A stretch of DNA of 64,000 nt from an uncultured Gammaproteobacteria bacterium (lineage in GTDB: Bacteria; Patescibacteriota; Patescibacteriia; Magasanikbacterales; GWA2-37-8): assembly GCA_964482695.1 (NCBI GenBank), contig CAYZYP010000002.1, positions 46,962 to 110,961 on the forward strand, written 5' to 3'. Under the pieces are notes generated by a model that saw nothing but the letters and a program-made list of their open reading frames with translations, had not been told where the DNA came from and made no database searches. This document shows, in pieces, positions 7,235-61,259 of the stretch. Every line of letters starts with the position of its first letter. Position 1 is the first letter of the stretch. The position numbers and the translations under genes are program-made.

Positions 7235-7247
7235 AAATATGAAATTC

Positions 7248-7281
7248 AGATGTTCAAATATATTTGAACATCTGAATTGCG
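7248..7281. repeat. Perfect 34-bp palindrome (17-bp arms, no spacer) between the flippase and GT4 genes
   Basis: ATTCAGATGTTCAAATAT|ATATTTGAACATCTGAAT; no T-run follows, so it is an operator-like or cruciform site rather than a classic terminator. Confidence 0.5.
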
Positions 7282-8449: not shown

Positions 8450-9202
8450 ATGATCAGCATTATTATTCCGGTTTATAACCATGCCCACATCTTGGAACGC
8501 AGTTTATGTTCGGTTTGCGCGCAAACCTATCGGCCGCTTGAAGTGATTATTGTAAATGATGGCAGTACGGATAATTTTGAAAAGGTAATGAGCAAGATAA
8601 TTATGAAGAATATGGAGAGAGGAATAAATAATGAAATAAAAATCAAGGTGATAAATCAAGAAAATAAAGGGGCAAGCGCGGCTAGAAATAGGGGATTTAA
8701 AGAGGCTACAGGTAAGTATGTAATTTTTTGGGACGCGGATACAATCGCCCAGCCAAAAATGCTAGAAAAAATGTTAAATGCTTTACAAAATAATCCATCG
8801 GCTAGTTATGCTTATAGTCAATTTAAATTTGGTTGGAAAAAAATAAAAAGTCATGAATTTGACCCTGATTTACTTAAAAAAATAAATTATATTGATGCCA
8901 CTTCTTTGATTAGAAAAAAAGATTACGTAGAATGTTTTTCCGCCAAAGCCGGACCAGCCTTGGGCTGGGATGAATCACTAAAACGTTTTCAAGACTGGGA
9001 TTTGTGGCTAACAATGTTAGAAAAAAATAAAACAGGCGTTTTTGTGCCCGAAGTTTTATTTAAAAAAATAGTTAGTGGCCGCAAGGGGATTAGCAATTGG
9101 CTGCCCAGTTTTGTTTATAAATTGCCGTGGAAAGGTAAAAAAGTTTTAGAATATGAGCAAACCAAAGAAATAATTTTTAAAAAGCATTTAGACGGCGCAT
9201 AA
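8450..9202 (+). CDS. Glycosyltransferase family 2
   Basis: IIIPVYN....VIIVNDGSTD and DADT resemble the GT2 DXD region. Confidence 0.85.
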   Translation: MISIIIPVYNHAHILERSLCSVCAQTYRPLEVIIVNDGSTDNFEKVMSKIIMKNMERGINNEIKIKVINQENKGASAARNRGFKEATGKYVIFWDADTIAQPKMLEKMLNALQNNPSASYAYSQFKFGWKKIKSHEFDPDLLKKINYIDATSLIRKKDYVECFSAKAGPALGWDESLKRFQDWDLWLTMLEKNKTGVFVPEVLFKKIVSGRKGISNWLPSFVYKLPWKGKKVLEYEQTKEIIFKKHLDGA

Positions 9203-9260
9203 ACATTCTTTTTCGCGCTGCGGACTTCGCCGCGACTGCGAAAAAGAATGTTTATGCGCC
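9194..9260. terminator. Bidirectional palindrome shared by the converging GT2 and ligase-like genes
   Basis: 23-bp arms GGCGCATAAACATTCTTTTTCGC / GCGAAAAAGAATGTTTATGCGCC around a 21-nt GC-rich loop. Each arm also encodes the terminal Gly-Ala-stop of one of the two genes. Confidence 0.55.
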
Positions 9261-10706
9261 TTTTAAGTCGTAACTAATTTTAGTCATTATTGCCGTTAGT
9301 AGAATAATTCCCAAAACATGAAATAAAGCCGGTGAAGTGAGATTGATAATCAAAAGAGAAATAAGCATTGCTAAAATATATCTTTTATTTTTAATCCTAT
9401 ATTTTTTTAATATTAAAAATAAAAGATTAAAAATAAAAGATAACCAAATCAAAAATCCAACCATTCCCATTTCATCAATTATTTCCAAATACCCCCAGTC
9501 AAATTGAGTAGTGGTGATTTCTTTCTTAACGACTGGGCTATAGACAGTAACCGTGTCTCCCAAACCATTTCCCCAAAGTGGTTTTTGTTTTATTTTCTCC
9601 CAAATTTTTGGCAGTAGCATCATTCTTGATAGGGAGCTTTTTTCTATTGAAGGCGAGGCAATACTGCCAATTCGTAAGCCTAATAATTCCCAACCAAAAC
9701 TTTGTCCTCGGCTGGCGGCTAAATGAATAGATGAGAAAATTAAGATAAAAATAAAAATAGAACCAAGAGAATAAATAAGCCAGCGTTTCCAATATTGACG
9801 ACTAAATAAAAATAATAATCCGATCAAATAGGCTAGAATGTAAATACGAGTGAGGTTGAGAGAGAAAATGATAAGTAAAGACAAGATAATAAAATGATAA
9901 AATATTTTATCATTTTTGTCATCCCGAGCCACAGCGAGGGATCTCTGTCCGTTCACATAAGTATAGTTGGTATTTGTAGACAGAGATTCCTCGCTTCGCT
10001 CGGAATGACAGTCCTGTCTTGCAACTATTTGATAAATAAAATACAACAACACCGGCACTAACAACAAATGTTCATTAACTACCATCCGGTAAAAATTATT
10101 ATTTAAGTCAGTTATTTTGCCGCCAACAATATTTCTAAACCAATGATAATAGCTATCTTGCAACACTAAAATGTCAGAAGAATAGCTAATAAAAGTCAGT
10201 AAAACAAAAATTACATTGCCGATAATAGCCGCGCCGAGCATGGCAAAAGCCGTTTGTTTGAATTTTTCCGAATGCCATAACTCACATAAAGGAAAATAAT
10301 ACAAAAAGAAAAAATAGGGGATAGCGTCGGCAAAAATTTGGTGTGGATTATGGCCAGCATAATAACCAAGAGTAGAAGAAATAAAAACGATTAATAAAAT
10401 AGCTGAAAAAAGATAACAGATGATCTTGCTGTCTTTAAAAATTGTTTTGTATTTTTTATTATTTATTATCTGTATTGTATAAATTATTAATGAACAAATT
10501 AACAATAACGTTCTTAATGATGTCGAGTTAATGCTAAAAACCCCGCCCGCCCCGCCCAAAATAATTTCACCGGCAATAATATACCAACCACGTTCGTCTT
10601 TTTTTAAAAGTAAGTAAACAGTTGTGGCGAGTATAATAAAAGATAGAAAATAATTTATATACGACATTTCCGGGCTAAAAAAATACGAAAAAAGACGTGT
10701 GAACAC
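9252..10706 (-). CDS. O-antigen ligase/polymerase-like (Wzy_C-type) polytopic membrane protein carrying an in-frame palindromic-element insertion
   Basis: 484 aa, many TM helices, with a periplasmic-loop motif ...WGNGLGDT... resembling Wzy_C. The segment QDCHSERSEESLSTNTNYTYVNGQRSLAVARDDKNDK is encoded by repeat copy A. Confidence 0.55.
   Translation of the reverse strand: MFTRLFSYFFSPEMSYINYFLSFIILATTVYLLLKKDERGWYIIAGEIILGGAGGVFSINSTSLRTLLLICSLIIYTIQIINNKKYKTIFKDSKIICYLFSAILLIVFISSTLGYYAGHNPHQIFADAIPYFFFLYYFPLCELWHSEKFKQTAFAMLGAAIIGNVIFVLLTFISYSSDILVLQDSYYHWFRNIVGGKITDLNNNFYRMVVNEHLLLVPVLLYFIYQIVARQDCHSERSEESLSTNTNYTYVNGQRSLAVARDDKNDKIFYHFIILSLLIIFSLNLTRIYILAYLIGLLFLFSRQYWKRWLIYSLGSIFIFILIFSSIHLAASRGQSFGWELLGLRIGSIASPSIEKSSLSRMMLLPKIWEKIKQKPLWGNGLGDTVTVYSPVVKKEITTTQFDWGYLEIIDEMGMVGFLIWLSFIFNLLFLILKKYRIKNKRYILAMLISLLIINLTSPALFHVLGIILLTAIMTKISYDLKGA
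9918..10011. repeat. RPE-like palindromic element, copy A (full), in-frame inside the ligase-like CDS
   Basis: Left arm GTCATCCCGAGCCACAGCGAGGGATCTCTGTC, ~30-nt loop, right arm GACAGAGATTCCTCGCTTCGCTCGGAATGAC; homologous to the copies at 26855 and 11441. Confidence 0.8.
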
Positions 10707-10749: not shown

Positions 10750-11685
10750 TTATAATTTAAAATTATTAAGCTGCTTGTACCCGTTTATAAAATCCTTTGC
10801 TTTCATTGGCTTTTTTCCTTCCATTTGTAATTCTAAAATTTCTATACAGCCGCTATTACAACCGATAAAAATCTTTTCATCTTTATAAACCACTATCTTG
10901 TTTTCTATTTTTGCCTCGGATGGTTTGATTCTTAACAATTTTAATCTTTGATTTTTTACCTCTATATATATTCCCGGCCAAGGCGTTAACCCCCTGTATT
11001 GATTATAAATTTCCTGGGCTGTTTTATTAAAATCAACCAAGCCGTCTTCGCGCTTCAATATCTTGCAAAATGTAGCTTTTTTGTCATCTTGTGGTTTGGG
11101 GGAAATCTTACCGTCTACATAGGCTGGAATAGTGTTTAAAAGCATTTCAGAGGCCATTTTAGCGGCTTTAGCGTGTAAAGTGGTATAAGTGTCATCTGGC
11201 TCAATATTAAGCGTTTTTTGCGCCAAAATCGGCCCATGATCCATTTTTGCGTCAATGAGCATTATACTAACTCCGGTCTGGCTTTCACCATTTATTAAAA
11301 CCGATTGAATAGGCGATGGGCCGCGATATAAGGGGAGTAGAGAAGGATGAATATTGATAGACCCATGTTTGGGAATGTCTATTATATTTTGTGGAATAAG
11401 TAAGCCATAATCTACCACAATGTTTAAATCAATTTTTTTTGTCATCCCGAGGAGGTTCGCACCGACGAGGGATCTCTGTAATTTTTCCGGTTGCTCTATT
11501 TGCAAACCATGTTTTTGAGCCAAAAGTTTTACTGGTGGCAGTTGCAACTCTTGTTTACGCCCAACCGGCTTATCTGGTTGGGTAATAACTAGTTCAACCT
11601 TAACCAAAGGATTATTTATTAACCCTTGTAAAATCACAGTCGCGAAATCACCAGTACCAAAAAAGATGATGCTTATTTTTGTCAT
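10750..11685 (-). CDS. fmt: Methionyl-tRNA formyltransferase, with a short in-frame insertion from a half palindromic element
   Basis: Contains IIFFGTGDFA, HGSINIHPSLLPLYRGPSPIQ and the C-terminal domain. QRSLVGANLLGMTKK in the interdomain linker is encoded by repeat copy B. Confidence 0.92.
   Translation of the reverse strand: MTKISIIFFGTGDFATVILQGLINNPLVKVELVITQPDKPVGRKQELQLPPVKLLAQKHGLQIEQPEKLQRSLVGANLLGMTKKIDLNIVVDYGLLIPQNIIDIPKHGSINIHPSLLPLYRGPSPIQSVLINGESQTGVSIMLIDAKMDHGPILAQKTLNIEPDDTYTTLHAKAAKMASEMLLNTIPAYVDGKISPKPQDDKKATFCKILKREDGLVDFNKTAQEIYNQYRGLTPWPGIYIEVKNQRLKLLRIKPSEAKIENKIVVYKDEKIFIGCNSGCIEILELQMEGKKPMKAKDFINGYKQLNNFKL
11441..11479. repeat. RPE-like palindromic element, copy B (solo left arm) inside fmt
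   Basis: GTCATCCCGAGGAGGTTCGCACCGACGAGGGATCTCTGT is near-identical to the left arm of copy C; no right arm follows. Confidence 0.75.
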
Positions 11686-11752
11686 ATTTTTTAATATTTA
11701 TCAGGGCGGGACATTTCCCGCCCCTACAATTATATCATGTGAATAAAAATAT

Positions 11753-11781
11753 TGACAATTATCGGTTTCAAAGGTATCTTT
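11753..11781 (+). promoter_or_regulatory. Sigma70-like promoter at the left edge of the GC-rich island
   Basis: TTGACA, 17-nt spacer, TATCTT, followed by GGAGGTG (Shine-Dalgarno) and a GTG start. Confidence 0.35.
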
Positions 11782-11808
11782 TACCCAACCAACAACTGGA
11801 GGTGTGAA

Positions 11809-12192
11809 GTGAATAAAAAGCCTGTGTTAGTAGATTGGAAAGAGGCGTACGTAGAGCATGGGGGGCTACTTGTAGTCCCTATCCGCTCCGGAGATGGGAT
11901 GTACCTCGGGGAGCTTCGACTCCAGATGCACGAGAGGAGAACTTCTACCTCGCAGTCGCAACACTGGCATGGGAACATGGATGCCGGCGGCATCTGTATC
12001 ACCCCCGACGAGGAGGCTGCCCGCCGAGCAGCCACCCCGGACTCTGTGCGGCGGGAGGTTGGCCAGTTCGACCCTCCCACCCCCCCTACCATCAGCCCCA
12101 AGGTCGAGGACGCCCTCGACGCCGATCTGGCAAACGGTCCCACGCTTGAGGCCGTACCCTCCGGCCTCAAAGGCGATCCCAGCGGGATCTAG
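11809..12192 (+). CDS. Hypothetical protein encoded in a GC-rich (about 65%) foreign-looking island; no recognisable family
   Basis: GTG start 7 nt after GGAGG. The frame has strongly G/C-biased third positions (GC3) in its distal two-thirds, whereas the overlapping ORFs on both strands lack this. Product: VNKKPVLVDWKEAYVEHGGLLVVPIRSGDGMYLGELRLQMHE...GDPSGI. Confidence 0.45.
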   Translation: MNKKPVLVDWKEAYVEHGGLLVVPIRSGDGMYLGELRLQMHERRTSTSQSQHWHGNMDAGGICITPDEEAARRAATPDSVRREVGQFDPPTPPTISPKVEDALDADLANGPTLEAVPSGLKGDPSGI

Positions 12193-12307
12193 CCCCCCCC
12201 TCCGCTCCCACCCCCACGGTGAGAGCGCGCCCTTCGACTCTCACTAACCATAAATTTTAAAATAATTTAAAGTTTATGGCTAAGAGTCGAAGAAAAAAAG
12301 TTAAAAT

Positions 12308-12340
12308 AAAATATCCCGACGAGAAGTCGGGATATTTTTA
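12308..12340. terminator. Hairpin with flanking A/T runs (bidirectional terminator-like)
   Basis: AAATATCCCGAC-gagaa-GTCGGGATATTTTT. Confidence 0.55.
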
Positions 12341-12349
12341 ATTTTAGTC

Positions 12350-12457
12350 TTTACGCGTCACGCCAGCGGAAAACACTTTTTGAGCGTTCCCGACTTGTTC
12401 GGGACGATTCAAAAAGTTTTTTCCGCTGGCGCAAGGAATAACATTTACGCGTATTTT
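12350..12457. repeat. Long-hairpin repeat family, copy a (conserved tail abuts the def stop codon)
   Basis: Left CTTTACGCGTCACGCCAGCGGAAAACACTTTTTGA, inner hairpin, right TCAAAAAGTTTTTTCCGCTGGCGCAAGGAATAACATTTACGCGTATTTTT. Confidence 0.7.
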
Positions 12458-12458
12458 T

Positions 12459-12950
12459 CTATGCCTCTTTTTTTTCTATCTTTTGCAATTCCTTTGCCTT
12501 CTCAATAAACAAAATTCCATTCAAATGATCCACCTCGTGCTGAATAACTCGCGCCAAAATATCACTGGCTTTAAATTTTATCACCTCGCCATTTTTATTT
12601 AACGCTTCTATTTTTATTTTTTTATACCGCTTAACCTTGCCCCAAATTTCCGGCACTGACAAACACCCTTCCACATCCCATTCTTTAAGTAACGACGCCC
12701 GTTTCCATTTCGGATTTACCAAAACTAAATCTTCTTTTTTTTCTAACGTATAAATTTTTGCGATCACGCAAATAGCCACCGCTTGCCCCACTTGCGTTGC
12801 CGCCAACCCTGCGCCATCGGCTTTTAACATTGTTTCTATCATATTCTTAATCAAACGCTGTGTTTTCTTAACCAAAATTTCCTCTTTGGTGAGAGGTTTG
12901 GTTTTGGTATGGAGAATTGGATTAGGAGTGGTTATTATTGGCAGTAACAT
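12459..12950 (-). CDS. def: Peptide deformylase
   Basis: Motifs GAGLAATQVGQ, EGCLSVP and QHEVDHLNG. Confidence 0.95.
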   Translation of the reverse strand: MLLPIITTPNPILHTKTKPLTKEEILVKKTQRLIKNMIETMLKADGAGLAATQVGQAVAICVIAKIYTLEKKEDLVLVNPKWKRASLLKEWDVEGCLSVPEIWGKVKRYKKIKIEALNKNGEVIKFKASDILARVIQHEVDHLNGILFIEKAKELQKIEKKEA

Positions 12951-12968
12951 AAATAATAAATTAAGTTA

Positions 12969-13138
12969 GCCAACGGAAATTAGGTACTAAATTTCTGTCG
13001 GCAATGGAAGCCCTCGGGAGGGCGACTGAGCGAACTCATAAACCGAGATTTTTTGATTGACGTTGAAGCGAAGGAGTCTTGCCGACAGAAATTTAGTACC
13101 TAATTTCCGTTGGCGCGATGGATATAATTTACGCGCGC
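12969..13138. repeat. Long-hairpin repeat family, copy b (34-bp perfect stem, 74-nt loop, conserved tail)
   Basis: Stem CCAACGGAAATTAGGTACTAAATTTCTGTCGGCAA / TTGCCGACAGAAATTTAGTACCTAATTTCCGTTGG, then tail CGCGATGGATATAATTTACGCGCGC. Confidence 0.7.
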
Positions 13139-13153
13139 TTCTTTGCGAAAACT

Positions 13154-15076
13154 TTACAATTGCAACACTTCATTTGGATTAGGGTCAACCTTCCAATATT
13201 CCGGCACCCCAGAAAGCAACATCTTCACGTCACTTTTATAATTATCATACCTGATTTTTGCCAAAATCACCAGCCAATATTTACCCCCATAAAATTCCGG
13301 CGTGGTTTCCAAAGGACCAGATAATTTAATACCAGATTCGTTTTTTGTCAATTCAGACAATGTTTTAAAAACTTGACCAGCTTCATTTTCAACAACCTGT
13401 TTATTTACGTGGCCATAAAGCAATTTTAACAAAAAACGAAAAGGTGGATAGCCCAATATTTGTCGCCCTTTTAATTCTTGCTCATAAAATTTAAGTGGAC
13501 TACTTAAGGCGGTAAAAACCAAATGGTCAGGATGACTGGTTTGAATTAATAATTCAGCCTGTTTATTTAGTTTGTATTTAGCGTCGCGTAAATTATACCA
13601 CAAATTTTCATTTATTTTGTATTCCGGCACGAAGAGCGAAGTGTCCGCATCCAAAAAAACCATTAATTTTACCTTTTCCCAATCAACAAACGGCCAGGCC
13701 AGTTGCGTGCCAATAATTATTTTATTTCTATCATCACTAGTATTTTTATAAGCCATATCTTTCTGATCGCTATCTATCCGTACTACTTGCGTGTTATTTT
13801 TACCAACCATTAATTTCCTTATTTGATTTTCGGCCAGTTGCGTGCCTGCCCCCAGCATGTTCATGTTTATACCATGACATTTTTCACAATTTCTAGCCAT
13901 AAATTGTTTGTGACCGCAATAATGACAGCGCAAATTATTGTCGTTGTGAAACGTTAAAAGCAAATCACATTTAGGACATTTTAAAACTTGCCCACAATCA
14001 CGACAGCCAACATAGCCAGAAGCGCCTCTTCTGTTGAGAAAAACAAAAATGTCGCCATTTTTTACTTGTAAAATTTTTTCTGTTAATTTATTGCTAAAAC
14101 AACCATAATTGCCATAATGACGCTCGTCGCGCATGTCTATAATATTTATGTCTTGTTTTTTTTCTTTTTCTAAATTTGATTTAAATTTATTGATTGACTG
14201 TTGATTTAAAGTAGAAAGATTTGTAGATAAATATATTTTTTTCTTGGCAAAAAAATATGTTTCCACGCTTGGCGTGTGAGTTAATAAATGCAAAGTGGCG
14301 TTATGCTGTTTGGCCAAAAATAAAGCCGCGTCTCTGGTTTGATACCGTGGGGTCATATCCCAGCTTTTATAATTTGGATTAGATTCGTCCGTTAAAAAAA
14401 TATTTTCTAAATTATGCCACGGTAAAAATAACGCCCGACGCGTGCCAATTATTATTTTTTCACCTTCGTAAATTTGCCACCATTTTTTAAAAAGTTCTTT
14501 AGGGCTTAATTGACTAGAAATTATAATTGCTTTTTTTAACAAAGATTTTGGCAATTTATTTATGCTTTTTAATTCCGGAACTAAAATTAAATTTTGTTCT
14601 TTAACAGCTAAATTTTTTTTTAAATAATCATCCCGTTGTTTTTCTGTTTGATAAATAAAAAGCCTGGGTTTGGCCGTAAAAACAGCTTGTTTCAAGCTTT
14701 TGTTATTTTTAAATTTTAGTTCTAAACTGGCCAATTTCTTTTTTTGCAACGGCGGTAAATTTTCTTTAAGTAAAAATCCCAAAGAAGTGTGGTAAAATTC
14801 TGCCAAATCATTTAAAAAATTAATTTGCGGTAAAGATAATAGGGGACCAGAAAAAATAATTTTGCTAATTGATTTTGTTTTCTTCAATGCTTGTTCTGTA
14901 AAATTTTCTTTTTGTTTTACGGCGGCTATAACGCCAAAAATTTCCTTATTGCGGAAAGGAACAGCTGTTAACTGCCCAACCTTAATACTATCCGCTAATT
15001 CATCCGGCACCAAATAATCCAGCAATGATAAATAACGCGGCATGCGGCGAGGTAAAATAATTTTAGCGATAACCAT
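13154..15076 (-). CDS. priA: Primosomal protein N' (PriA)-like with intact Cys4x2 zinc-binding domain but degenerate Walker A/DEAH motifs
   Basis: Zinc-binding CRDCGQ..CPKC...CHYCGH...CEKC, plus PriA-specific FLNRRG and LDADTSLFVPEY. The Walker A position reads IYQTEKQRDDYL (no GxGKT) and the DExH position reads LTDESN. Confidence 0.7.
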   Translation of the reverse strand: MVIAKIILPRRMPRYLSLLDYLVPDELADSIKVGQLTAVPFRNKEIFGVIAAVKQKENFTEQALKKTKSISKIIFSGPLLSLPQINFLNDLAEFYHTSLGFLLKENLPPLQKKKLASLELKFKNNKSLKQAVFTAKPRLFIYQTEKQRDDYLKKNLAVKEQNLILVPELKSINKLPKSLLKKAIIISSQLSPKELFKKWWQIYEGEKIIIGTRRALFLPWHNLENIFLTDESNPNYKSWDMTPRYQTRDAALFLAKQHNATLHLLTHTPSVETYFFAKKKIYLSTNLSTLNQQSINKFKSNLEKEKKQDINIIDMRDERHYGNYGCFSNKLTEKILQVKNGDIFVFLNRRGASGYVGCRDCGQVLKCPKCDLLLTFHNDNNLRCHYCGHKQFMARNCEKCHGINMNMLGAGTQLAENQIRKLMVGKNNTQVVRIDSDQKDMAYKNTSDDRNKIIIGTQLAWPFVDWEKVKLMVFLDADTSLFVPEYKINENLWYNLRDAKYKLNKQAELLIQTSHPDHLVFTALSSPLKFYEQELKGRQILGYPPFRFLLKLLYGHVNKQVVENEAGQVFKTLSELTKNESGIKLSGPLETTPEFYGGKYWLVILAKIRYDNYKSDVKMLLSGVPEYWKVDPNPNEVLQL

Positions 15077-18619: not shown

Positions 18620-18650
18620 TATAAAAATAATTTATCATTATACATATACA

Positions 18651-18790
18651 TTCTCAGCATTAAATTATTTTTAGACACATCAATTTTGCCCAGCGGCAAA
18701 ATTAACTTAAGTGCTCGGCAAAAATCCCGACTAACGTCGGGACCATGCATTTTTGCCTCGCAAACTCTAAAAATAATTTAATGCTGAGAA
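18651..18790. repeat. Nested-palindrome structured repeat, copy 1 (about 96-nt conserved core inside a locus-specific 22-bp inverted repeat)
   Basis: Outer arms TTCTCAGCATTAAATTATTTTT / AAAAATAATTTAATGCTGAGAA. The core TAGACACATCAATTTTGCCCAGCGGCAAAATTAACTTAAGTGCTCGGCAAAAATCCCGACTAACGTCGGGACCATGCATTTTTGCCTCGCAAACTCT contains two sub-hairpins. Confidence 0.8.
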
Positions 18791-18808
18791 TGTAATTAAA
18801 CAAAAAAT

Positions 18809-22611: not shown

Positions 22612-23002
22612 TTATATTAAAAAATTTTACAGATAATATTTTTTTGTGGATAACTTCCATTGACCAAGAATAACTTTTCATCTAAACTATCTTTAGTTCT
22701 TTCAAATATATCAAGAGCGGTGCGAGGGAATCGGCCCGACAACCACCCAGCAACCCCCAAAGCGGGGGTGCTAATTCCGAACCCTAAATACAGGGAAAGA
22801 TAAGTTTTGTCTTGTCTACCCGCCTCTGGCGGAGACAAGGCAAAAAACGCTTTTTTAAAAAGGCCTTTTACTCTTTCTTTGTGATATATTTAGGGTAAAG
22901 GGCTTTTTTGTTTTATTATGTAAAAATTGTATTTCCATTCATAGACGGTTTAAGAATTAAAACAATTTAATTTTTAAACCGTCTATGACGGAAGGAGAAG
23001 AA

Positions 23003-25946: not shown

Positions 25947-27305
25947 ATGCTACCAAAACCTAAAAAAATTCGTCAAATTTATTTAGACCACGCCGCAACT
26001 ACCTACACAGAGAAAGAAGTGCTTGATGCCATGTTGCCCTATTTTAACCAAAAATACGGCAACCCATCTTCTTTATACAATACAGGCAGAGAAGCCAACG
26101 GAGAGATAAATAATGCCAGACGAATGGTAGCGCGCATAATCCATGCTTTACCAGAAAATATTATTTTTACTGGTAGTGGCACAGAATCCGATAACCTGGC
26201 AATTTACGGTATTGCCCGCGCCCACGAACAAAAAGGCAAACATATTATTTCTTCCCCCATAGAGCATCACGCTGTGCTGTATCCGCTAGAAGATTTGAAA
26301 AAACAAGGTTGGGAAATTACTTACACAAAGGTGGATAAAAAAGGTTTTGTTGATGCTAAAGAAATTATCAAAAATATTAAAAAAGATACTGTTTTAATTA
26401 CAGTAATGTACGCCAACAATGAAATAGGCACCATAGAATCAATAGCCGAAATCGGCCGGGAAATTTTAAAAATTCGTAAACAAAATAATTCGCCGTATCC
26501 TTATTTTCATACCGATGCTTGTCAGGCAGCCGGCTACTGCGATTTGGATGTCGAGAAACTACACGTAGATTTGATGACAATCAATGGCAGTAAAATTTAC
26601 GGCCCAAAGGGGGTTGGCATGTTGTATCTGCGACGTGGTGTTAAAATTAAACCGCTGATATTGGGTGGCTCGCAAGAAAAGAAATTGCGCGCTGGCACGG
26701 AAAATGTGCCCGGTATAGTGGGGTTTGCCAAAGCTTTTGAAATGGCGCAAAAGAATAGAGAAAAAGAAAGCGCGCGAGTCGCTGGTTTACGAGATTATCT
26801 TTGGCAAAGGATTGAAAAAGAAATTTCAGACGTTCGTCTCAACGGCCCAGTTTTGTCATCCCGAGGAGGTTCGCACCGACGAGGGATCTCTGTCCCGTCG
26901 GACAGTAGGCGACCAGACAGAGATTCCTCACCCTGCGATGGGTTCGGAATGACAAAAACGGATTTTCGTGAATTCTGCAATGACAGTGAACGACTACCTA
27001 ATAATCTCAACGTCACATTCATGAACGTGGAAGGTGAAGCCATGCTCCTATATTTAGATGAATATGGTGTGATGTGTTCCACCGGTTCGGCCTGCACTTC
27101 GGATTCACTAGATCCATCACATGTCTTAACTGCTATCGGATTACCATACGAATACGCTCATGGAAGTTTGCGTTTTAGTTTAGGAAAACGCAACACCAAA
27201 CAAGATATTGATTATTTGATGAAATATTTGCCAAAAATAGTAGAGACTTTGCGCGAAATGTCGCCAGTGAATATGGGGGTTAAAAAACATGCTAAATACA
27301 AATAA
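25947..27305 (+). CDS. iscS: Cysteine desulfurase (IscS/NifS class I) carrying a ~46-aa in-frame insertion from a palindromic element
   Basis: PLP-Lys region SGSKIYGPKG and the active-site loop SGSACTS. The segment VLSSRGGSHRRGISVPSDSRRPDRDSSPCDGFGMTKTDFREFCNDS is inserted between LNGP and ERLPNNLNVTF. Confidence 0.9.
   Translation: MLPKPKKIRQIYLDHAATTYTEKEVLDAMLPYFNQKYGNPSSLYNTGREANGEINNARRMVARIIHALPENIIFTGSGTESDNLAIYGIARAHEQKGKHIISSPIEHHAVLYPLEDLKKQGWEITYTKVDKKGFVDAKEIIKNIKKDTVLITVMYANNEIGTIESIAEIGREILKIRKQNNSPYPYFHTDACQAAGYCDLDVEKLHVDLMTINGSKIYGPKGVGMLYLRRGVKIKPLILGGSQEKKLRAGTENVPGIVGFAKAFEMAQKNREKESARVAGLRDYLWQRIEKEISDVRLNGPVLSSRGGSHRRGISVPSDSRRPDRDSSPCDGFGMTKTDFREFCNDSERLPNNLNVTFMNVEGEAMLLYLDEYGVMCSTGSACTSDSLDPSHVLTAIGLPYEYAHGSLRFSLGKRNTKQDIDYLMKYLPKIVETLREMSPVNMGVKKHAKYK
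26855..26953. repeat. RPE-like palindromic element, copy C (full), in-frame inside iscS
   Basis: Left arm GTCATCCCGAGGAGGTTCGCACCGACGAGGGATCTCTGTC, loop, right arm GACAGAGATTCCTCACCCTGCGATGGGTTCGGAATGAC. Confidence 0.85.
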
Positions 27306-29015: not shown

Positions 29016-30557
29016 ATGAAGCAAAAATTCTACCTCACCACCGCCATTCCATACGCTAACGCTGATCCGCATATTGGTTTTGCTTTAGAAATTTTGTACG
29101 CCGACGTGATGGCTAGGTATCAAAGGTTAATTGGCAAAGATGTCTATTTTCTCACTGGCACAGATGAACACGGTCAGAAAATGTATAAAACTGCCAAAGA
29201 AAATGGCCGGCCAGTAGAAGAATTTGCCGCCGAAAAATCAGCCATGTATTTAAATTTAGCAGACCAGTGGAACATAACTAACGATGATTTTATTCGTACG
29301 ACCGAAACGCGGCATATGGAACGTGCGCAAAAATTTTGGCAAGTGGCGCTTGAAAATGAAGATATTTATAAAAAAGAATACGAAGGACTGTATTGTGTTG
29401 GTTGTGAATCATTTAAAACAGAAAAAGATTTAATAGACGGCAAATGCCCGGATCACAACAAAGAGCCAGAAGAATTAAAAGAAGAAAATTATTTTTTTAA
29501 ACTTTCTAAGTATCAGCCACGATTATTAGATTTATTTGAAAATAAACCTGATTTTGTTTTTCCAAAGTCGCGCTTTAACGAAATGTATAATATTTTACGT
29601 CAAGGATTAGAAGACATTAGTATTTCACGCTCCAAAGAAAAATTGCCTTGGGGCATACCGGTCCCAGGCGATAATACGCAGGTAATGTATGTTTGGTTTG
29701 ACGCTTTAACAAATTATATCACCGCGCTTGGCTATGGCTCTGATGACGAAAAAAATTTAAAAAAATATTGGCCGGCAGATGCGCATATAATTGGTAAAGA
29801 AATTAACCGTTTTCATTCTCTACTTTGGCCGGCGATGCTCATGTCCGCTGGTGTGGAATTACCAAAACAAATAGCTGTTCATGGTTGGATAACAGTTGAT
29901 GGGCAAAAAATGAGCAAAACAATTGGCAATGTTATTAGTCCTCTTGAATTAATTGAACAATATCCATTAGAAGCTGTGCGTTATTTTTTCATGCGAGAAA
30001 TACCATTTGACAATGATGGTGATTTTTCCTACACAAAATTTGTCGCGCGATATAACGCTGATCTGGCAAACGGTTTGGGTAATTTAACCAATCGTATTTT
30101 AGTAATGATTGAAAAATATTGTGATAAAACCGTGCCAGAAGTAAAAAATATTCATCATGAAATGATCGATAAGTTAAGTAATGAAATTTGGCCCCAATAT
30201 AATACTGCCATGGAAAAATTTAGCTTTAATCACGCTTTGGAACAAGTTTGGAAGTTAATTACTTATTGTGACCAAATTATTACTGATAAAAAGCCTTGGG
30301 AATTATACAAACAAGGCAAAACCAATGAACTAAACGACCTTTTGCACCATCTGGCCGAGGCCTTGCGTCATATTGCTGTTATGGTCTGGCCAACAATGCC
30401 GGAAACAGCGGAAAAAATACTGGCTCAACTTGGTTTAGAAGTGTCAAAAGAATTAAGCAAACCGCTTTCAGAATTACAAAATTGGGTGCAGTTAATGGTT
30501 GGTAATAAAATAAATAAAGGTGAACCGTTGTTTCCGCGTTTAATTGAAAAGTTATAA
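29016..30557 (+). CDS. metG: Methionyl-tRNA synthetase (short form lacking the C-terminal tRNA-binding domain)
   Basis: HIGH-like PHIGF, KMSKT, and a CxxC...CP zinc knuckle. Confidence 0.95.
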   Translation: MKQKFYLTTAIPYANADPHIGFALEILYADVMARYQRLIGKDVYFLTGTDEHGQKMYKTAKENGRPVEEFAAEKSAMYLNLADQWNITNDDFIRTTETRHMERAQKFWQVALENEDIYKKEYEGLYCVGCESFKTEKDLIDGKCPDHNKEPEELKEENYFFKLSKYQPRLLDLFENKPDFVFPKSRFNEMYNILRQGLEDISISRSKEKLPWGIPVPGDNTQVMYVWFDALTNYITALGYGSDDEKNLKKYWPADAHIIGKEINRFHSLLWPAMLMSAGVELPKQIAVHGWITVDGQKMSKTIGNVISPLELIEQYPLEAVRYFFMREIPFDNDGDFSYTKFVARYNADLANGLGNLTNRILVMIEKYCDKTVPEVKNIHHEMIDKLSNEIWPQYNTAMEKFSFNHALEQVWKLITYCDQIITDKKPWELYKQGKTNELNDLLHHLAEALRHIAVMVWPTMPETAEKILAQLGLEVSKELSKPLSELQNWVQLMVGNKINKGEPLFPRLIEKL

Positions 30558-30562
30558 GGTGC

Positions 30563-30608
30563 TTCTTTTTTCGCTGACGCAAGGAATATAATTTTACTCG
30601 TATTTTTT
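30563..30608. repeat. Long-hairpin repeat family, copy d (solo conserved tail only)
   Basis: TTTTTTCGCTGACGCAAGGAATATAATTTTACTCGTATTTTTT matches the tail of copy a at about 85% identity. Confidence 0.6.
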
Positions 30609-32346: not shown

Positions 32347-33117
32347 ATGCACATTCCTACACTGGCGCCAGAAATTTTGTTTGAACTAGGGGGATTTCCA
32401 ATAACCAACACCATGGTCAATGTTTGGTTGGCAATTGTCATTTTTTTAATCTTTGGTTTAATAATCAGAAAAAAAGCGGCCGTGCGGCCAGGAAAATTAC
32501 AAAATGCCTCAGAATTTTTTCTAGATGGACTCATGGGCTATTTTGATCAAGTTACCGGAGACCATAAAAAAACTTTGCGTTTTTTACCACTTGTTGGTTC
32601 GGTCTTCTTTTTTATTTTACTTTCTAACTGGCTAGGCTTACTTCCTGGCACAGGCAGTATAACTTTTGGCGGCAAGATGTTACTACGACCAGCCAATACC
32701 GATTTAAATTTAACAGCTGCCATGGCTATTGTTTCGGTTTTAGCTTCACATTTATTTGGGCTATTTACTGTTGGAATTTTTACGCATCTAAATAAATTTA
32801 TACAAATAGGTACTTTTGTCAAAAGTTTTCGCAAAGGCCCGGTGGCAATACTCACGGCTGTTATTGAATTAGCGGTTGGCGCGATTGAAATAGTAAGTGA
32901 GATGGCCAAAGTAGTTTCTCTTTCACTAAGGTTATTTGGTAATATTTTTGCCGGCGAAGTTTTAATTACAGTTATCAGTAGCTTGGTAGGTTTAATAGTA
33001 CCAACGCCATTTATGTTATTAGAATTATTGGTTGGAATTATCCAAGCAAGTGTTTTTGCTATATTAACATTGGTATATTTGACAATCCTAACAACCAAAC
33101 CACAGACGGAACACTAA
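32347..33117 (+). CDS. atpB: F0F1 ATP synthase subunit a
   Basis: LSLRLFGNIFAGE contains the essential Arg. Confidence 0.95.
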   Translation: MHIPTLAPEILFELGGFPITNTMVNVWLAIVIFLIFGLIIRKKAAVRPGKLQNASEFFLDGLMGYFDQVTGDHKKTLRFLPLVGSVFFFILLSNWLGLLPGTGSITFGGKMLLRPANTDLNLTAAMAIVSVLASHLFGLFTVGIFTHLNKFIQIGTFVKSFRKGPVAILTAVIELAVGAIEIVSEMAKVVSLSLRLFGNIFAGEVLITVISSLVGLIVPTPFMLLELLVGIIQASVFAILTLVYLTILTTKPQTEH

Positions 33118-33122
33118 TCAAA

Positions 33123-33285
33123 CTTTTACGGTGCACCAACGAACAATATATCTTTTTTAGAAAAAAAGTAGTCGGAAAACTTTTTGCCGTAGTGAAACGT
33201 AGGCAAAAAGGCAAACGGATAACTGCTTTTTTTCTAAAAAAGATATATTGTTCGTTGGTGCGATGAATTACGTTTACGCATATTC
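33123..33285. repeat. Long-hairpin repeat family, copy c (35-bp perfect stem plus conserved tail) between atpB and atpE
   Basis: Stem CACCAACGAACAATATATCTTTTTTAGAAAAAAAG / rc, then tail CGATGAATTACGTTTACGCATATTC; the left flank CTTTTACGGTG resembles copy a. Confidence 0.7.
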
Positions 33286-33385
33286 TTTACAAAAAAATTT
33301 TATAATTTAATTAAGGACATGATACTGGCGAAGTAAAACATACCCCCTCTTCGTCTCCAGTAACATATCCAAGAAAGGTAATAAT

Positions 33386-33607
33386 ATGGAACACGAATCA
33401 ATCGTGACAATCGTCAAAGGTTTAACCATGGCCTTGGGAGGCTTTTTCCCGGCAATGGCTATCGGCAGATTAGTGGCCAAAGCTATGGAAAGTATCGGCC
33501 GCAACCCAGAATCAGCTGGAAAATTATTCGTCCCAATGTTACTTGGCGCCGCTTTTGCCGAAGCTATCGCTATTTACGCTCTAGTAGTTGTGTTTACTTT
33601 AAAATAG
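33386..33607 (+). CDS. atpE: F0F1 ATP synthase subunit c
   Basis: Two-TM hairpin with the conserved carboxylate region AFAEAIAIYALVV. Confidence 0.95.
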   Translation: MEHESIVTIVKGLTMALGGFFPAMAIGRLVAKAMESIGRNPESAGKLFVPMLLGAAFAEAIAIYALVVVFTLK

Positions 33608-39336: not shown

Positions 39337-39484
39337 TAGACATTCATATTTATCTATTACTAGACACATAGATTTTGCCCAGCGGCAAAATCTATTCAAG
39401 TGCTCGACAAAAATTTTTTCCTTCGGGAAAAAACCATGCATTTTTGCCTCGCAAGCTCTAATAATAGATGAATATGAATGTCTA
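39337..39484. repeat. Nested-palindrome structured repeat, copy 2
   Basis: Outer arms TAGACATTCATATTTATCTATTA / TAATAGATGAATATGAATGTCTA around the core TAGACACATAGATTTTGCCCAGCGGCAAAATCTATTCAAGTGCTCGACAAAAATTTTTTCCTTCGGGAAAAAACCATGCATTTTTGCCTCGCAAGCTCT. Confidence 0.8.
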
Positions 39485-41922: not shown

Positions 41923-41994
41923 ACGGGGCAAGAGGATTCGAACCTCCGACTGTGGGTTGTCAACCCACCACTCTGCCAACTGAGTTATGCCCCG
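41923..41994 (-). tRNA. tRNA-Val (anticodon GAC)
   Basis: Hand-folded cloverleaf: acceptor CGGGGCA/TGCCCCG, D stem ACTC/GAGT, anticodon stem GTGGG/CCCAC with loop TTGACAA, T arm GGAGG-TTCGAAT-CCTCT. CCA is not encoded. Confidence 0.8.
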
Positions 41995-42000
41995 AAATAA

Positions 42001-42073
42001 AGCGGGAAGCTGGATTTGAACCAGCGACATCGAGTTTAAAAACTCGCGCTCTGCCATGCTGAGCTATTCCCGC
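42001..42073 (-). tRNA. tRNA with glycine-type acceptor stem and U73 discriminator but a noncanonical anticodon loop (CGAG-TTTTTAAA-CTCG); identity uncertain
   Basis: Hand-folded: acceptor GCGGGAA/TTCCCGC plus discriminator T (identical to the E. coli tRNA-Gly acceptor), D arm GCTC-AGCATGGCA-GAGC, T arm GCTGG-TTCAAAT-CCAGC. The anticodon arm folds only as a 5-bp stem with a 6-nt loop, or a 4-bp stem with an 8-nt loop. Confidence 0.6.
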
Positions 42074-57472: not shown

Positions 57473-57540
57473 AAAGGGGATAAGTATATTTGACCTATTT
57501 CATTGATATTATATAATATAGTTAATGTCGTATAAGATAG

Positions 57541-57663
57541 ATTAAGCGACATAGTATGGTTCTTTTTTATCAAAAAATATACTCTTACTAATAGCTAACC
57601 ATACTGTGTCGCTTAATCTGCCCACGTAAAGCGACATTTTTTAAAATGTCGCTTTACGTGGGC
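57541..57663. promoter_or_regulatory. Two adjacent palindromes sharing the motif AAGCGACA(T/C) directly upstream of the xer gene; candidate dif-like site or operator
   Basis: IR1 ATTAAGCGACATAGTATGGTT...AACCATACTGTGTCGCTTAAT (57541-57617); IR2 is a perfect palindrome GCCCACGTAAAGCGACATTTT TT AAAATGTCGCTTTACGTGGGC (57620-57663). Confidence 0.5.
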
Positions 57664-57705
57664 TATGTGAGCTACAATATATCTTTTATCAATGTGGAAA
57701 ATATT

Positions 57706-58665
57706 ATGCACAAATCAAACCAGCCTATTACTTACCATATTCCTAATTTTTTGGATTTTTGTGAAGTGGAAAAGGGTTTGAGTCCAGTTACCACCAAAAA
57801 CTATCATAATTTCTTAAAGGTGTTCATTAACTGGCTAAAAGAGCAAAAAAAATCGCTTTTAAGGCCTCATGAACTCACTCCAGAGCATATCTGGCAGTAC
57901 CGGCTATATTTATCGCGTAAAAACGATTTAAAAGGCAAATACATCAAAAAAACCACTCAAAACTACTATCTAATAGCTTTGCGCAACATGCTAAACTATT
58001 TTGCTGAAAAAGATATCATTTCTTTGCCTTCGGACAAAATTAAATTACCTAAAATAACTGACAAAGATAAAAAAATAAAATTCTTACGTTTTGATCAATT
58101 AGAAAAATTAATGTCTATGCCAGACACTTCTAAGACCGAGGGTTTGCGTGATCGGGCGATTTTAGAAATCCTCTTCTCTACTGGTATGCGAGTTTCCGAA
58201 CTTACGTCGCTTAATATTAGATCATTTAATATTGAAAATTTAGAAAAAAATAATTTTATTGAACAAGAATTAAGTATTAGTGGCAAAGGTGGTTCTACTA
58301 GAACTATCTATTTTTCCGCAAGTGCTTTAAAGTGGTTGGCACAATACCTTAAAACCAGAAAAGACATGAACACTCCTCTATTTATCAACTATAAAAAAGA
58401 CAAAGACGATGATGAACATCGCCTTACTCCGCGCTCTGTTGAACGGATTGTCAGAAAATATGCCGTTATGGCAGGGCTGCCTGTTGATGCCACTCCGCAC
58501 ACACTTCGCCATAGTTTTGCCACTGATTTATTAGAACACGGCGCGGACGTGCGCTCGGTGCAAGAGCTATTGGGACACAAAAACATCGTTACCACGCAAA
58601 TTTATACTCATGTTACCAATCCTCACTTAAAAGATATTCATAAACGATTTCATAGTGGAACATAA
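57706..58665 (+). CDS. Tyrosine site-specific recombinase (XerC/XerD/XerH-like)
   Basis: N-terminal core-binding domain and catalytic R...HTLRHSFAT...Y region ending ...GHKNIVTTQIYTHV. Start chosen at MHKSNQPITYHIP. Confidence 0.88.
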   Translation: MHKSNQPITYHIPNFLDFCEVEKGLSPVTTKNYHNFLKVFINWLKEQKKSLLRPHELTPEHIWQYRLYLSRKNDLKGKYIKKTTQNYYLIALRNMLNYFAEKDIISLPSDKIKLPKITDKDKKIKFLRFDQLEKLMSMPDTSKTEGLRDRAILEILFSTGMRVSELTSLNIRSFNIENLEKNNFIEQELSISGKGGSTRTIYFSASALKWLAQYLKTRKDMNTPLFINYKKDKDDDEHRLTPRSVERIVRKYAVMAGLPVDATPHTLRHSFATDLLEHGADVRSVQELLGHKNIVTTQIYTHVTNPHLKDIHKRFHSGT

Positions 58666-58695
58666 AAATAAACCCCATATATATGGGGTTTATTT

Positions 58696-59739
58696 TTAAA
58701 ATTTTAAACTCGCTTCTATTATTAAATCCAACATCTTATTAAAACTAATTCCCATTTTTCCAGCTGCTTCTGGCAGTAAACTAACCGCCGTCATACCGGG
58801 AATAGTATTAGTTTCTATCACATAAAAATTACCATCATCAGCCACAAAAATATCTGTTCTAGACATCCCTCTGCAACCCAAAACTTGGTGCGCCTTAACC
58901 GCGATAACTTGCAATTTTTTATTTACAGTTGGCGAAAAATCGGCTGGACAAATATGGGTAGAACCGCCTTCGTCGTATTTTGACTTATAATCATAAAATT
59001 TACCTTTATTGGCGATTATTCTTGTTGGCGGCAAGGCAAAAGGAATGCCGTTTTTTTCTAACACGCCACAAGTCGCTTCTTTGCCTTTAACAAACTTCTG
59101 CGCCATTAGATAAGAAAAATTTTTAAATGTACTTTCTATTATTTTAACCATTTCTTTTTCCGTGTTAACTATAGAAACCCCCACAGCCGAACCTTGATCA
59201 ACTGGCTTAATAACAACTGGAAAACCAATTTTCTTAATAATTTCTTTAATTAATTGTTTTTTATCTTTTAGCCACTCTATTTTTTGAAAATCTATAAAAT
59301 CCGGGGTTAACAAACCGTGCGCTCGATATATTTCCGCGGTTTTGGCTTTATTCATGGCCAAAGCGCTGGCTAACACTCTGGAGCCAGTATAAGGCACGTT
59401 TAAACACTCTAGTAAGCCTTGTAAGCAACCGTCTTCGCCGTAAGTGCCGTGCAAAGCAATAAAAATTAAATCTAATTTTGTAGCGCTTAAATTATAATTA
59501 TCTTGGCTTGTTGTGATGGAAAAACTTTCTTGCTGTTTTTTGTCGCCGTACTTAATTGATTTTAAATCTCCACTATTAAGCAAAATCATTTTACCGTCTT
59601 TGGACATCTCTATTGGAATAATTTCATATTTCTGATTATCTAAATTTTCTGTTACCGCTCTACCGGTAATTAAAGAAATCTCTCGTTCTGCCGAAGGACC
59701 GCCCATCAATACGCCAATACGTAATTTTTGTTTAGACAT
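58696..59739 (-). CDS. ddl: D-alanine--D-alanine ligase
   Basis: ATP-grasp motifs and the conserved EDGCLQGLLE, FPVVIKP and ETNTIPG. Start chosen at MSKQKLRIGVLMGG. Confidence 0.92.
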   Translation of the reverse strand: MSKQKLRIGVLMGGPSAEREISLITGRAVTENLDNQKYEIIPIEMSKDGKMILLNSGDLKSIKYGDKKQQESFSITTSQDNYNLSATKLDLIFIALHGTYGEDGCLQGLLECLNVPYTGSRVLASALAMNKAKTAEIYRAHGLLTPDFIDFQKIEWLKDKKQLIKEIIKKIGFPVVIKPVDQGSAVGVSIVNTEKEMVKIIESTFKNFSYLMAQKFVKGKEATCGVLEKNGIPFALPPTRIIANKGKFYDYKSKYDEGGSTHICPADFSPTVNKKLQVIAVKAHQVLGCRGMSRTDIFVADDGNFYVIETNTIPGMTAVSLLPEAAGKMGISFNKMLDLIIEASLKF

Positions 59740-61095: not shown

Positions 61096-61126
61096 AAGTT
61101 TTATAATTTTTATAATTTGTTGATAA

Positions 61127-61259
61127 TATCTTTTTTTGGAGTTTGCGAGGCAAAATTGCACGGCTCCCCGACTCAGTCGGGGAAATTTTGTCGAGCACTT
61201 AAGTCAATTTTGTCGCTGGACAAAATTGACGTGTCTAAAAAAAGATGTTATCAACAAAT
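61127..61259. repeat. Nested-palindrome structured repeat, copy 3 (reverse orientation); the outer right arm overlaps the last codons of gltX
   Basis: Outer arms TTTGTTGATAATATCTTTTTTT / AAAAAAAGATGTTATCAACAAA around the reverse complement of the same ~90-nt core. Confidence 0.8.

Follow-up and report, generated by a model that had tools for sequence, protein, structure and literature searches.

The window examined here is a stretch of 64 kb from contig CAYZYP010000002.1 of a Patescibacterium (Candidate Phyla Radiation, CPR) that stems from groundwater metagenomes and has a guanine-plus-cytosine (GC) content of ~35%. Homologues of Def and the adjoining genes put it close to Candidatus Magasanikbacteria. 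Our subject is a family of long hairpin repeats located in the spacers between its housekeeping genes (family 1 where it is set against other repeats). It has six members: four copies, a, b, c and d, lie in the window, copy e was found on contig L083 and copy f on contig L055. CPR genomes are small and tightly packed, and relatives have 0-5 nt between the genes in question. It is notable that hairpin repeats of 110-220 nt have entered essential operons (ATP synthase, priA-def-fmt) and left them intact. They amount to a natural experiment on the handling of long double-stranded RNA or cruciform-prone DNA in operons by such cells.

Copies a and b flank def (peptide deformylase; 12459-12950, - strand). 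On the other side of b follows priA (13154-15076, - strand), the stop codon of which lies within the extended tail of b. The C-termini of both proteins are of normal length compared with relatives. Copy a is adjoined by a canonical bidirectional intrinsic terminator (12308-12338). Copy c separates atpB (ATP synthase subunit a; 32347-33117, + strand), upstream, from atpE (ATP synthase subunit c; 33386-33607, + strand), downstream. Copy d is placed between metG and a Colicin_V-family (cvpA-type) gene. All four places had been pointed out in the initial annotation of this DNA and were confirmed in the sequence. Transcription would meet the tail first in a, b, e and f and the hairpin first in c and d.

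The general plan of a unit is a left motif (TTTAC plus 5-7 nt), a hairpin of 66-146 nt and an asymmetric 3' tail, GCRAKGRATAWMATTTACGCG. The base of the stem, GCCARSGG/CCSYTGGC, is common to all copies; the interior varies by subfamily. Copy a (12350-12458, + strand), between the def stop codon and the terminator, starts with the left motif TTTACGCGTCAC (12350-12361). Its imperfect hairpin (12361-12431) consists of 13 bp, a C.T mismatch, 9 bp and an apical CCCGA/TCGGG hairpin; the arms of 33 nt each (12361-12393 and 12399-12431) are 85% complementary. The tail CAAGGAATAACATTTACGCGTATTTTT (12432-12458) reaches the def stop codon (12459-12461). Copy b (12969-13159, + strand) has arms of 36 nt (12969-13004 and 13079-13114) which are 100% complementary and enclose a loop of 74 nt with a small GC hairpin. 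The tail GCGATGGATATAATTTACGCGCG (13115-13137) is followed by the extension CTTCTTTGCGAAAACTTTACAA (13138-13159), which overlaps the priA stop codon (13154-13156). In copy c (33118-33305, + strand) the left motif TCAAACTTTTACGGT (33118-33132) precedes arms of 40 nt (33133-33172 and 33222-33261) with 98% complementarity, 36 nt of it perfect, then the tail GATGAATTACGTTTACGCATA and the extension TTCTTTACAAAAAAATTTTATAA. Copy d (30566-30608, + strand) is a 5'-truncated, a-type copy. It starts 9 nt past the metG stop codon (30555-30557) and consists of the final ~13 nt of a 3' arm of the a type, TTTTTTCGCTGAC, plus the tail GCAAGGAATATAATTTTACTCGTATTTTTT. The long perfect stems reported initially thus hold for b and c, over 36 bp, but neither for a nor for d, which is only a 3' fragment.

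L083 is a contig of 33.8 kb with 35% GC from the same Joint Genome Institute (JGI) metagenome as the window. Here copy e lies between the ndk stop codon and a terminator, i.e. it repeats the layout of copy a: stop codon, copy, terminator. Copy f comes from a different metagenome. It is located on a contig of 1,084 nt and 37% GC between the genes of an 80-aa membrane protein and a methyltransferase, and is composed of GCCAAGGG, a 22-bp stem, CCCTTGGC, then GCAATGAATAACATTTACGC and then AAACTTCTTTGCTAAAAATTTACAA. An outer 10-bp inverted repeat, AGTTTGTAAA/TTTACAAACT, is a property of copy f alone.

Several motifs are distributed unevenly. The extension CTTCTTTGCKAAAAMTTTACAA is present in b, c and f only. 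The left motif GCGTCAC is common to a and e, with a related GGTGCAC in c, and c and f have the left flank CAA(A)CTTTT(TT)AC in common. In a, c and f a TTTAC in direct orientation precedes the hairpin by 5-7 nt; it is absent there in b, and e has TTAAT. A second TTTAC is located 13 nt past the hairpin in all copies (TTTAG in e). Beyond it, b and f carry a third TTTAC after ~24 nt and c after 13 nt, where e shows a tandem GGCGTRCCTATAA instead. The stem is preceded by GTCAC, AATTC or GTTA, and a GTAG head is absent.

Relatedness of the copies and covariation of the stems

Whole-unit pairwise local alignments of a-b, a-c and b-c gave z = 6-8 above shuffles. Over all members pairwise z was 6-49, apart from b-e with 4.8 and c-e with 0, which is not significant. 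When the window was scanned with an nhmmer profile built on the tail, only four sites came up, a to d, all on the + strand. With leave-one-out profiles a, b and f were recovered among the eight best matches listed, c, d and e were not. The shared 3' tail described earlier is real, with a length of ~25-45 nt, and six members with alignments above shuffles bear out a family with a conserved frame around a hairpin. The initial annotation had considered chance similarity more likely if the tail were confined to a 20-kb stretch; the hairpin-associated tails of e, on another contig, and of f, in another metagenome, lie outside it.

Copies a, d, e and f can be aligned across the entire hairpin and tail and have one shared stem. 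The outer 8-11 bp of the stem are common to all copies. Accordingly, the earlier statement that the stems are unrelated in sequence applies only to the interiors of b and c, which are unique in the ~230 kb of sequence compared. The stems of e and f are identical, including a T.C mismatch, while their loops and tails differ; this does not support the proposed rapidly evolving interiors. Comparison of a with e/f over the 22-pair stem revealed five compensatory double changes and no one-sided change, i.e. the stems change by compensatory rather than random substitution, as the initial annotation had suggested to check. Pair 13 is unpaired in a (C.T) as well as in e and f (T.C), a conserved pyrimidine-pyrimidine mismatch. 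The stem covariation was reached by only 4 of 500 shuffles, and slid controls were 39-55% paired versus 95.5%. Among ~120 stem pairs we found just one T.G wobble pair in c and one possible G.T in a. Because wobble pairs are nearly absent, both DNA strands fold equally well. DNA folding of the hairpins yielded z = -8.9 to -14.7 versus dinucleotide shuffles. The tail itself folds at most into a weak 8-bp helix with two G.U pairs. An origin of the stems by local inverted duplication of flanking DNA was rejected because the same stem is present at different loci, in a and d and in e and f.

Copy b has the same sequence, with 100% identity, in the JGI assembly and in two European Nucleotide Archive (ENA) assemblies of different runs, three assemblies in all. 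For c, the JGI contig, which represents two further similar places, was the only one to show the complete hairpin; contigs from ENA and Logan begin inside its 3' arm. Since b is identical across assemblies and the c hairpin was read as a whole in the JGI contig, an assembly artefact is unlikely. Contigs of independent assemblies of this strain end inside the arms, at window position 12998 in b (L004) and at 33260 and 33232 in c (L070 and L071, respectively). Another contig end (L002, window 22950) is inside a hairpin at 22939-22988. Inverted repeats appear to fragment metagenome assemblies.

Further members were searched for with a degenerate 22-nt tail pattern, GYGCRAKGRATWWMRTTTACGC, which was scanned against genome, metagenome and viral contig collections; its yield in genomes and metagenomes is considered below. 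The viral contigs had no match to the tail pattern, and blastn of copy b against phage records was negative. Copy e was reached through a search with the 80-aa protein adjoining f, which led to L083. Candidate sites in L045/L063 and in L016 were rejected as extra members since they are located in coding sequence (infB in L016). No further copy is present in ~9 kb beyond each end of the window. In Rfam there was no match at the gathering score; at E ≤ 5 only sub-threshold matches to microRNA precursors and a rimP leader overlapped a and b. A full-text literature search yielded no description of such repeats in CPR bacteria. As far as the Rfam and literature searches show, the repeat family is novel in sequence but conceptually ordinary.

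The priA-def spacer measures 203 nt here versus 5 and 3 nt in syntenic relatives (Def 63% identical), and the def-fmt spacer 773 nt versus 2 nt or an overlap. At the site of f, 165 nt in L055 compare with 11 nt in L083, 1 nt in L085 and 17 nt in L086; in L083, where the 80-aa protein beside f has an orthologue with 88% identity, this site is empty. Downstream of ndk, L083 has copy e and a terminator, L085 and L086 have a plain terminator. Because the priA-def, def-fmt, ndk-terminator and f sites are tightly packed and empty in syntenic relatives, the copies are lineage-specific insertions. In the loci of five relatives from four lineages (~100 kb) no tail match was obtained below E = 1. Perfect stems with family-1 sequence were absent from the relatives (at least 16 bp in L075-L079, at least 14 bp in L085 and L086), and only three unrelated hairpins were found. 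The units were inserted into tiny spacers after stop codons, in operons or before terminators, and in either orientation. They constitute a diverged repeat family at non-orthologous intergenic sites of at least two related organisms, with a structurally conserved hairpin. A replication-strand rule for their orientation was rejected: when GC skew and gene direction are taken as reference, copy e is inverted compared with c and d.

Nature of the repeats

What kind of element is this? Probably, the six copies represent a lineage-restricted, non-autonomous intergenic hairpin repeat in a Magasanikbacteria-like Patescibacterium, of the type of miniature inverted-repeat transposable elements (MITE), enterobacterial repetitive intergenic consensus sequences (ERIC) or repetitive extragenic palindromes (REP). 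They look like selfish elements of the MITE/REP type, new in sequence and familiar in kind. As with MITEs, the orthologous sites of relatives are empty and the copies are at non-orthologous sites.

In its workings the family would be most similar to ERIC, also termed intergenic repeat units (IRU), and to Correia elements, i.e. to operon-internal palindromic repeats with either orientation, size variants and an RNA hairpin. ERIC/IRU are imperfect palindromes of ~100-200 nt in transcribed operon spacers. They occur in either orientation and with indel size variants, have no linked transposase and can change the decay of mRNA through their RNA hairpins. The present repeats are likewise palindromic, reside in operon spacers in either orientation, differ in size and have no transposase in ~110 kb around them. 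However, sequence similarity is absent, an asymmetric 3' tail lies outside the palindrome, the stems of b and c are perfect over 36 bp, the host is a Patescibacterium and there are six copies so far. Correia elements of Neisseria (NEMIS/CREE), for which processing by RNase III is documented, are also short and non-autonomous, form a long mRNA hairpin and are found near genes and inside operons. They have 26-bp terminal inverted repeats (TIRs) at their very ends, a TA duplication and a site for integration host factor, whereas here a clear target-site duplication was not found, a conserved tail is outside the inverted repeat and the stem sequence varies by subfamily. With REP sequences and their composites (bacterial interspersed mosaic elements, BIME; REP doublets forming hairpins, REPIN) the family has in common extragenic palindromes at gene 3' ends or between cistrons, a conserved stem mismatch, compensatory arms, occurrence in both orientations and possibly an influence on mRNA stability. 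REPs are 20-40 nt long, carry a GTAG head and reach tens to hundreds of nearly identical copies next to a gene for a REP-associated tyrosine transposase (RAYT). In contrast, our hairpins have 66-146 nt and no GTAG head, the six copies are diverged, and no RAYT is encoded in the ~110 kb surveyed by gene tables and Pfam scans (window, L072, L080, L083).

How would such a unit live in its host? Probably selfish, it would be co-transcribed with the host genes and fold into a long RNA hairpin. The RNA hairpins may be tolerated or, at most, serve as RNase III-type processing or stability sites. The initial annotation had presumed that copy c is transcribed; transcription is plausible for a, b, c, e and f, as they are inside operons or upstream of a terminator. 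Spreading would proceed through a protein supplied in trans and encoded elsewhere. Arm complementarity may be kept because the hairpin is recognized by that protein or by the cell. Alternatively, the arms could be maintained by arm-to-arm template-switch correction of quasipalindromes, an established mutational process. The perfect 36-bp stems of b and c may reflect subfamily divergence, youth or both, rather than locally generated palindromes. Should a dedicated recombinase be found, the family would be a compact model for hairpin-directed mobility.

Several findings weigh against a MITE/ERIC/REP-type repeat. In 185,579 representative genomes the tail pattern had no true copy; its matches were confined to one conserved gene of Campylobacter and to scattered chance sites. 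The metagenome collection gave the same picture plus a single further true copy, f on L055, and the known copies total just six. The collections apparently were without this organism's own contigs, and the scan is thus weak in both directions. A transposase, HUH (histidine-hydrophobic-histidine) or DDE domain is not encoded in the ~110 kb. The conserved tail extends 25-45 nt beyond the 3' arm, outside the inverted repeat, unlike in a classical TIR-bounded MITE. A convincing target-site duplication was not observed; candidates are TATTTTT at 12333-12339 and 12452-12458 around a, and ATAA at f compared with the empty L083 site, both weak in AT-rich DNA. A second copy of the stem interiors of b or c was not found in the ~230 kb compared. 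Finally, all four assemblies of the strain are identical and a near-identical strain with an empty site is missing; look-ups with AtpE and Def for strain polymorphism returned only the same strain.

Two simple functions were rejected. An intrinsic terminator has a GC-rich stem of 5-20 bp directly followed by a T-run. The stems of the family are not followed by a T-run, and a and e each have a separate canonical terminator. A terminator scan called 12308-12338 and none of the family hairpins, and had no terminator-like site at c. A promoter in the tail was dismissed as a consistent -35 partner is missing for the TATAAT-like TAnnnT and a scan found no promoter in any tail.

Instead of being selfish, the repeats could be cis-acting RNAs that serve the host. 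The double-stranded stems would guide cleavage of the RNase III type or stop 3' exonucleases and in this way set the stabilities of individual cistrons, e.g. of atpB versus atpE. Such use is known from Correia and ERIC elements, which act as RNA sites of this kind. Five of the six copies are in transcription units; b, c, d and f are between co-directional genes, a and e between a stop codon and a terminator. The stems are very stable and conserved through compensatory change, and the tight priA-def coupling of relatives has been broken without loss of the genes. Yet both orientations occur (4 versus 2), the same operons run without any such element in relatives, G.U pairs are scarcer than is usual in an RNA helix under selection, and copy d is broken. 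Moreover, a service to the host is compatible with a selfish origin and leaves the spread unexplained. We consider a primary host function unlikely.

Similarly unlikely is that the units are substrates of a single-strand hairpin recombinase, either a Y1 HUH transposase of the IS200/IS605 type or a RAYT acting on REP-like hairpins. The mismatched hairpin would be the binding site, the flanking TTTAC motifs would be cleavage or target sites. This would agree with the pyrimidine-pyrimidine mismatch at pair 13, which is conserved while neighboring pairs covary, with the virtual lack of wobble pairs and equal folding of both DNA strands, with direct TTTAC motifs on either side of the hairpin and with the position of all four window copies on the + strand. 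IS608 inserts 3' of TTAC. The non-coding derivatives of IS200/IS605, palindrome-associated transposable elements (PATEs), are also small, are defined by hairpins and not by TIRs, have no obvious target-site duplication and carry a TTAC-like motif 5' of the hairpin. PATEs, however, have two different subterminal hairpins together with tnpA/tnpB, whereas here each unit has a single hairpin instead of a distinct one for either end. The ~110 kb contain neither a Y1/HUH gene nor tnpA/tnpB. Further, the stems of b and c are perfect, without a mismatch; TTTACG is common in this DNA (37 + 20 sites in 64 kb); and e is inverted versus c and d, which speaks against a replication-strand rule or bias as in IS608. 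A bolder version has the mismatched hairpin with two or three direct TTTAC motifs as the substrate of an unrecognized single-strand recombination system of CPR bacteria, HUH/Y1-like or other, which would move single-hairpin units to positions after stop codons, the arms being kept by templated arm-to-arm copying. We regard this as a long shot. If true, highly reduced genomes would have a minimal mobile element of a new kind.

The initial annotation had pointed to integron attC sites. The units might then be attC-like or other tyrosine-recombinase sites, possibly Xer-dependent, on folded strands. The outer stems of b and c, CCAAC...GTTGG, resemble the AAC/GTT core of the attC R''/R' boxes, the general build has a conserved outer frame with a variable palindromic interior of variable length, and a tyrosine recombinase gene is in the window (57646-58665). 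The analogy failed on closer comparison. AAC/GTT is replaced by AGC/GCT in a (CCAGC/GCTGG) and by AAG/CTT in e and f (CCAAG/CTTGG); the boxes R'' (RYYYAAC) and R' (GTTRRRY) are not conserved. The extrahelical-base pattern of attC is missing, with no such bases in b and c. The copies are single, in housekeeping operons (priA-def, atp, metG) and after ndk, not in cassette arrays. An integron integrase was not identified: the only tyrosine recombinase of the window scores as XerC/D-like (~230 bits), and the integron-integrase model scored 102 bits versus a cutoff of 265, matching the catalytic C-terminus only. The tail as a dif/Xer site was rejected as well, since the palindrome beside the xer gene has no significant similarity to the tails. 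Such sites are very improbable.

Chance resemblance of AT-rich terminators or an artefact of assembly, for which one might cite the AT-rich genome (~35% GC), the contigs of other assemblies that end inside the arms of b and c and the score of the tail profile with a coding infB segment of an unrelated metagenome-assembled genome, is refuted by the agreement of three independent assemblies on b, by pairwise z of 6-49 and by copy e, one of two more hairpin-plus-tail copies on other contigs, and is further at odds with perfect 36-bp inverted repeats far beyond chance and with stems that lack a T-run.

Other repeats and features of the window

The window contains a second hairpin family with three copies, at 18647-18794 (+ strand), 39337-39484 (+ strand) and 61101-61273 (- strand), all co-oriented with the neighboring genes. 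Here it is the interior of ~90 nt that is conserved. It comprises CAC, a 12-bp hairpin ATTTTGCC-CAGC-GGCAAAAT, AAGTGCTCGRCAAAA, a small GC hairpin and TTTTGCCTCGCAA. The outer stem of 28-40 nt is copy-specific and always ends with TAGA/TCTA. RNAalifold predicted 50 pairs, 18 of them with compensatory changes. Family 2 had no match in Rfam; its pattern was absent from the viral contigs, and blastn of one copy against phage records gave no match. We considered a nested insertion similar to family 2 as the source of the interior of copy c and rejected it, because the resemblance, ATCTTTTTTAGA, is of low complexity and families 1 and 2 are not significantly similar. The sole exception is copy a versus family-2 copy 2 with z = 4, which was reached by 1 of 200 shuffles.

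A third repeat, TTTTGTCATCCCGAGGAGGTTCGCACCGACGAGGGATCTCTGT... (window 26851-26958 and 11437-11479), is located within coding sequence; a stretch of 43 nt is 100% identical in two genes. A palindromic copy of ~108 nt ending with GGAATGACAAAA is inserted in frame in a cysteine desulfurase and adds ~36 aa (...GFGMTKT...). A half copy is in frame in fmt (...LGMTKK...). This is reminiscent of the Rickettsia palindromic elements inserted in open reading frames (ORFs).

Relatives have def and fmt side by side; here a GC-rich island of ~450 nt (window 11750-12300), with ~60% GC in a 35% GC genome, lies between the two genes. It has a promoter-like TTGACA-17-TATCTT at 11752 and the terminator at 12308-12338. 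Its ORF of 127/146 aa has no Pfam match and, among 5.8 billion proteins, no homologue but itself. Folding of the island gives z = -4.3 for both strands, and a further long hairpin (~12229-12292) forms its end. It could be an orphan gene or a structured RNA.

Directly upstream of the XerC/D-like gene and overlapping its called start is an inverted repeat, perfect over 21 bp and spaced by 2 nt (GCCCACGTAAAGCGACATTTT TT AAAATGTCGCTTTACGTGGGC, 57620-57663). A neighboring 23-nt inverted repeat (57539-57619) has the motif AAGCGACAT in common with it. The cumulative GC skew turns over at ~56-58 kb, at these inverted repeats. By analogy to XerS/difSL the repeat is a candidate dif site beside a single Xer recombinase. 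Loopless perfect palindromes of 36 bp exist at 7243-7278 and 58663-58698. The latter spans the stop codon of the xer-like gene to that of the convergent ddl and therefore is probably a bidirectional terminator. Another hairpin between convergent genes (9188-9266) has 29-nt arms which are 93% complementary, 23 bp of it perfect; the arms weakly resemble the family-1 tail (GCGAAAAAGAATGTTTATGCGCC), with weak nhmmer matches at E ~5.

Past the right end of the window, positions 1-1900 of contig L072 (JGI Ga0103681_1002957) encode an archaeal-type Ribosomal_L21e and a weak RNA_pol_Rpb4 match beside a bacterial clpB; this contig may be chimeric. An S-adenosylmethionine (SAM) riboswitch (window 22705-22806) and two tRNA genes (41923-42073) are ordinary.

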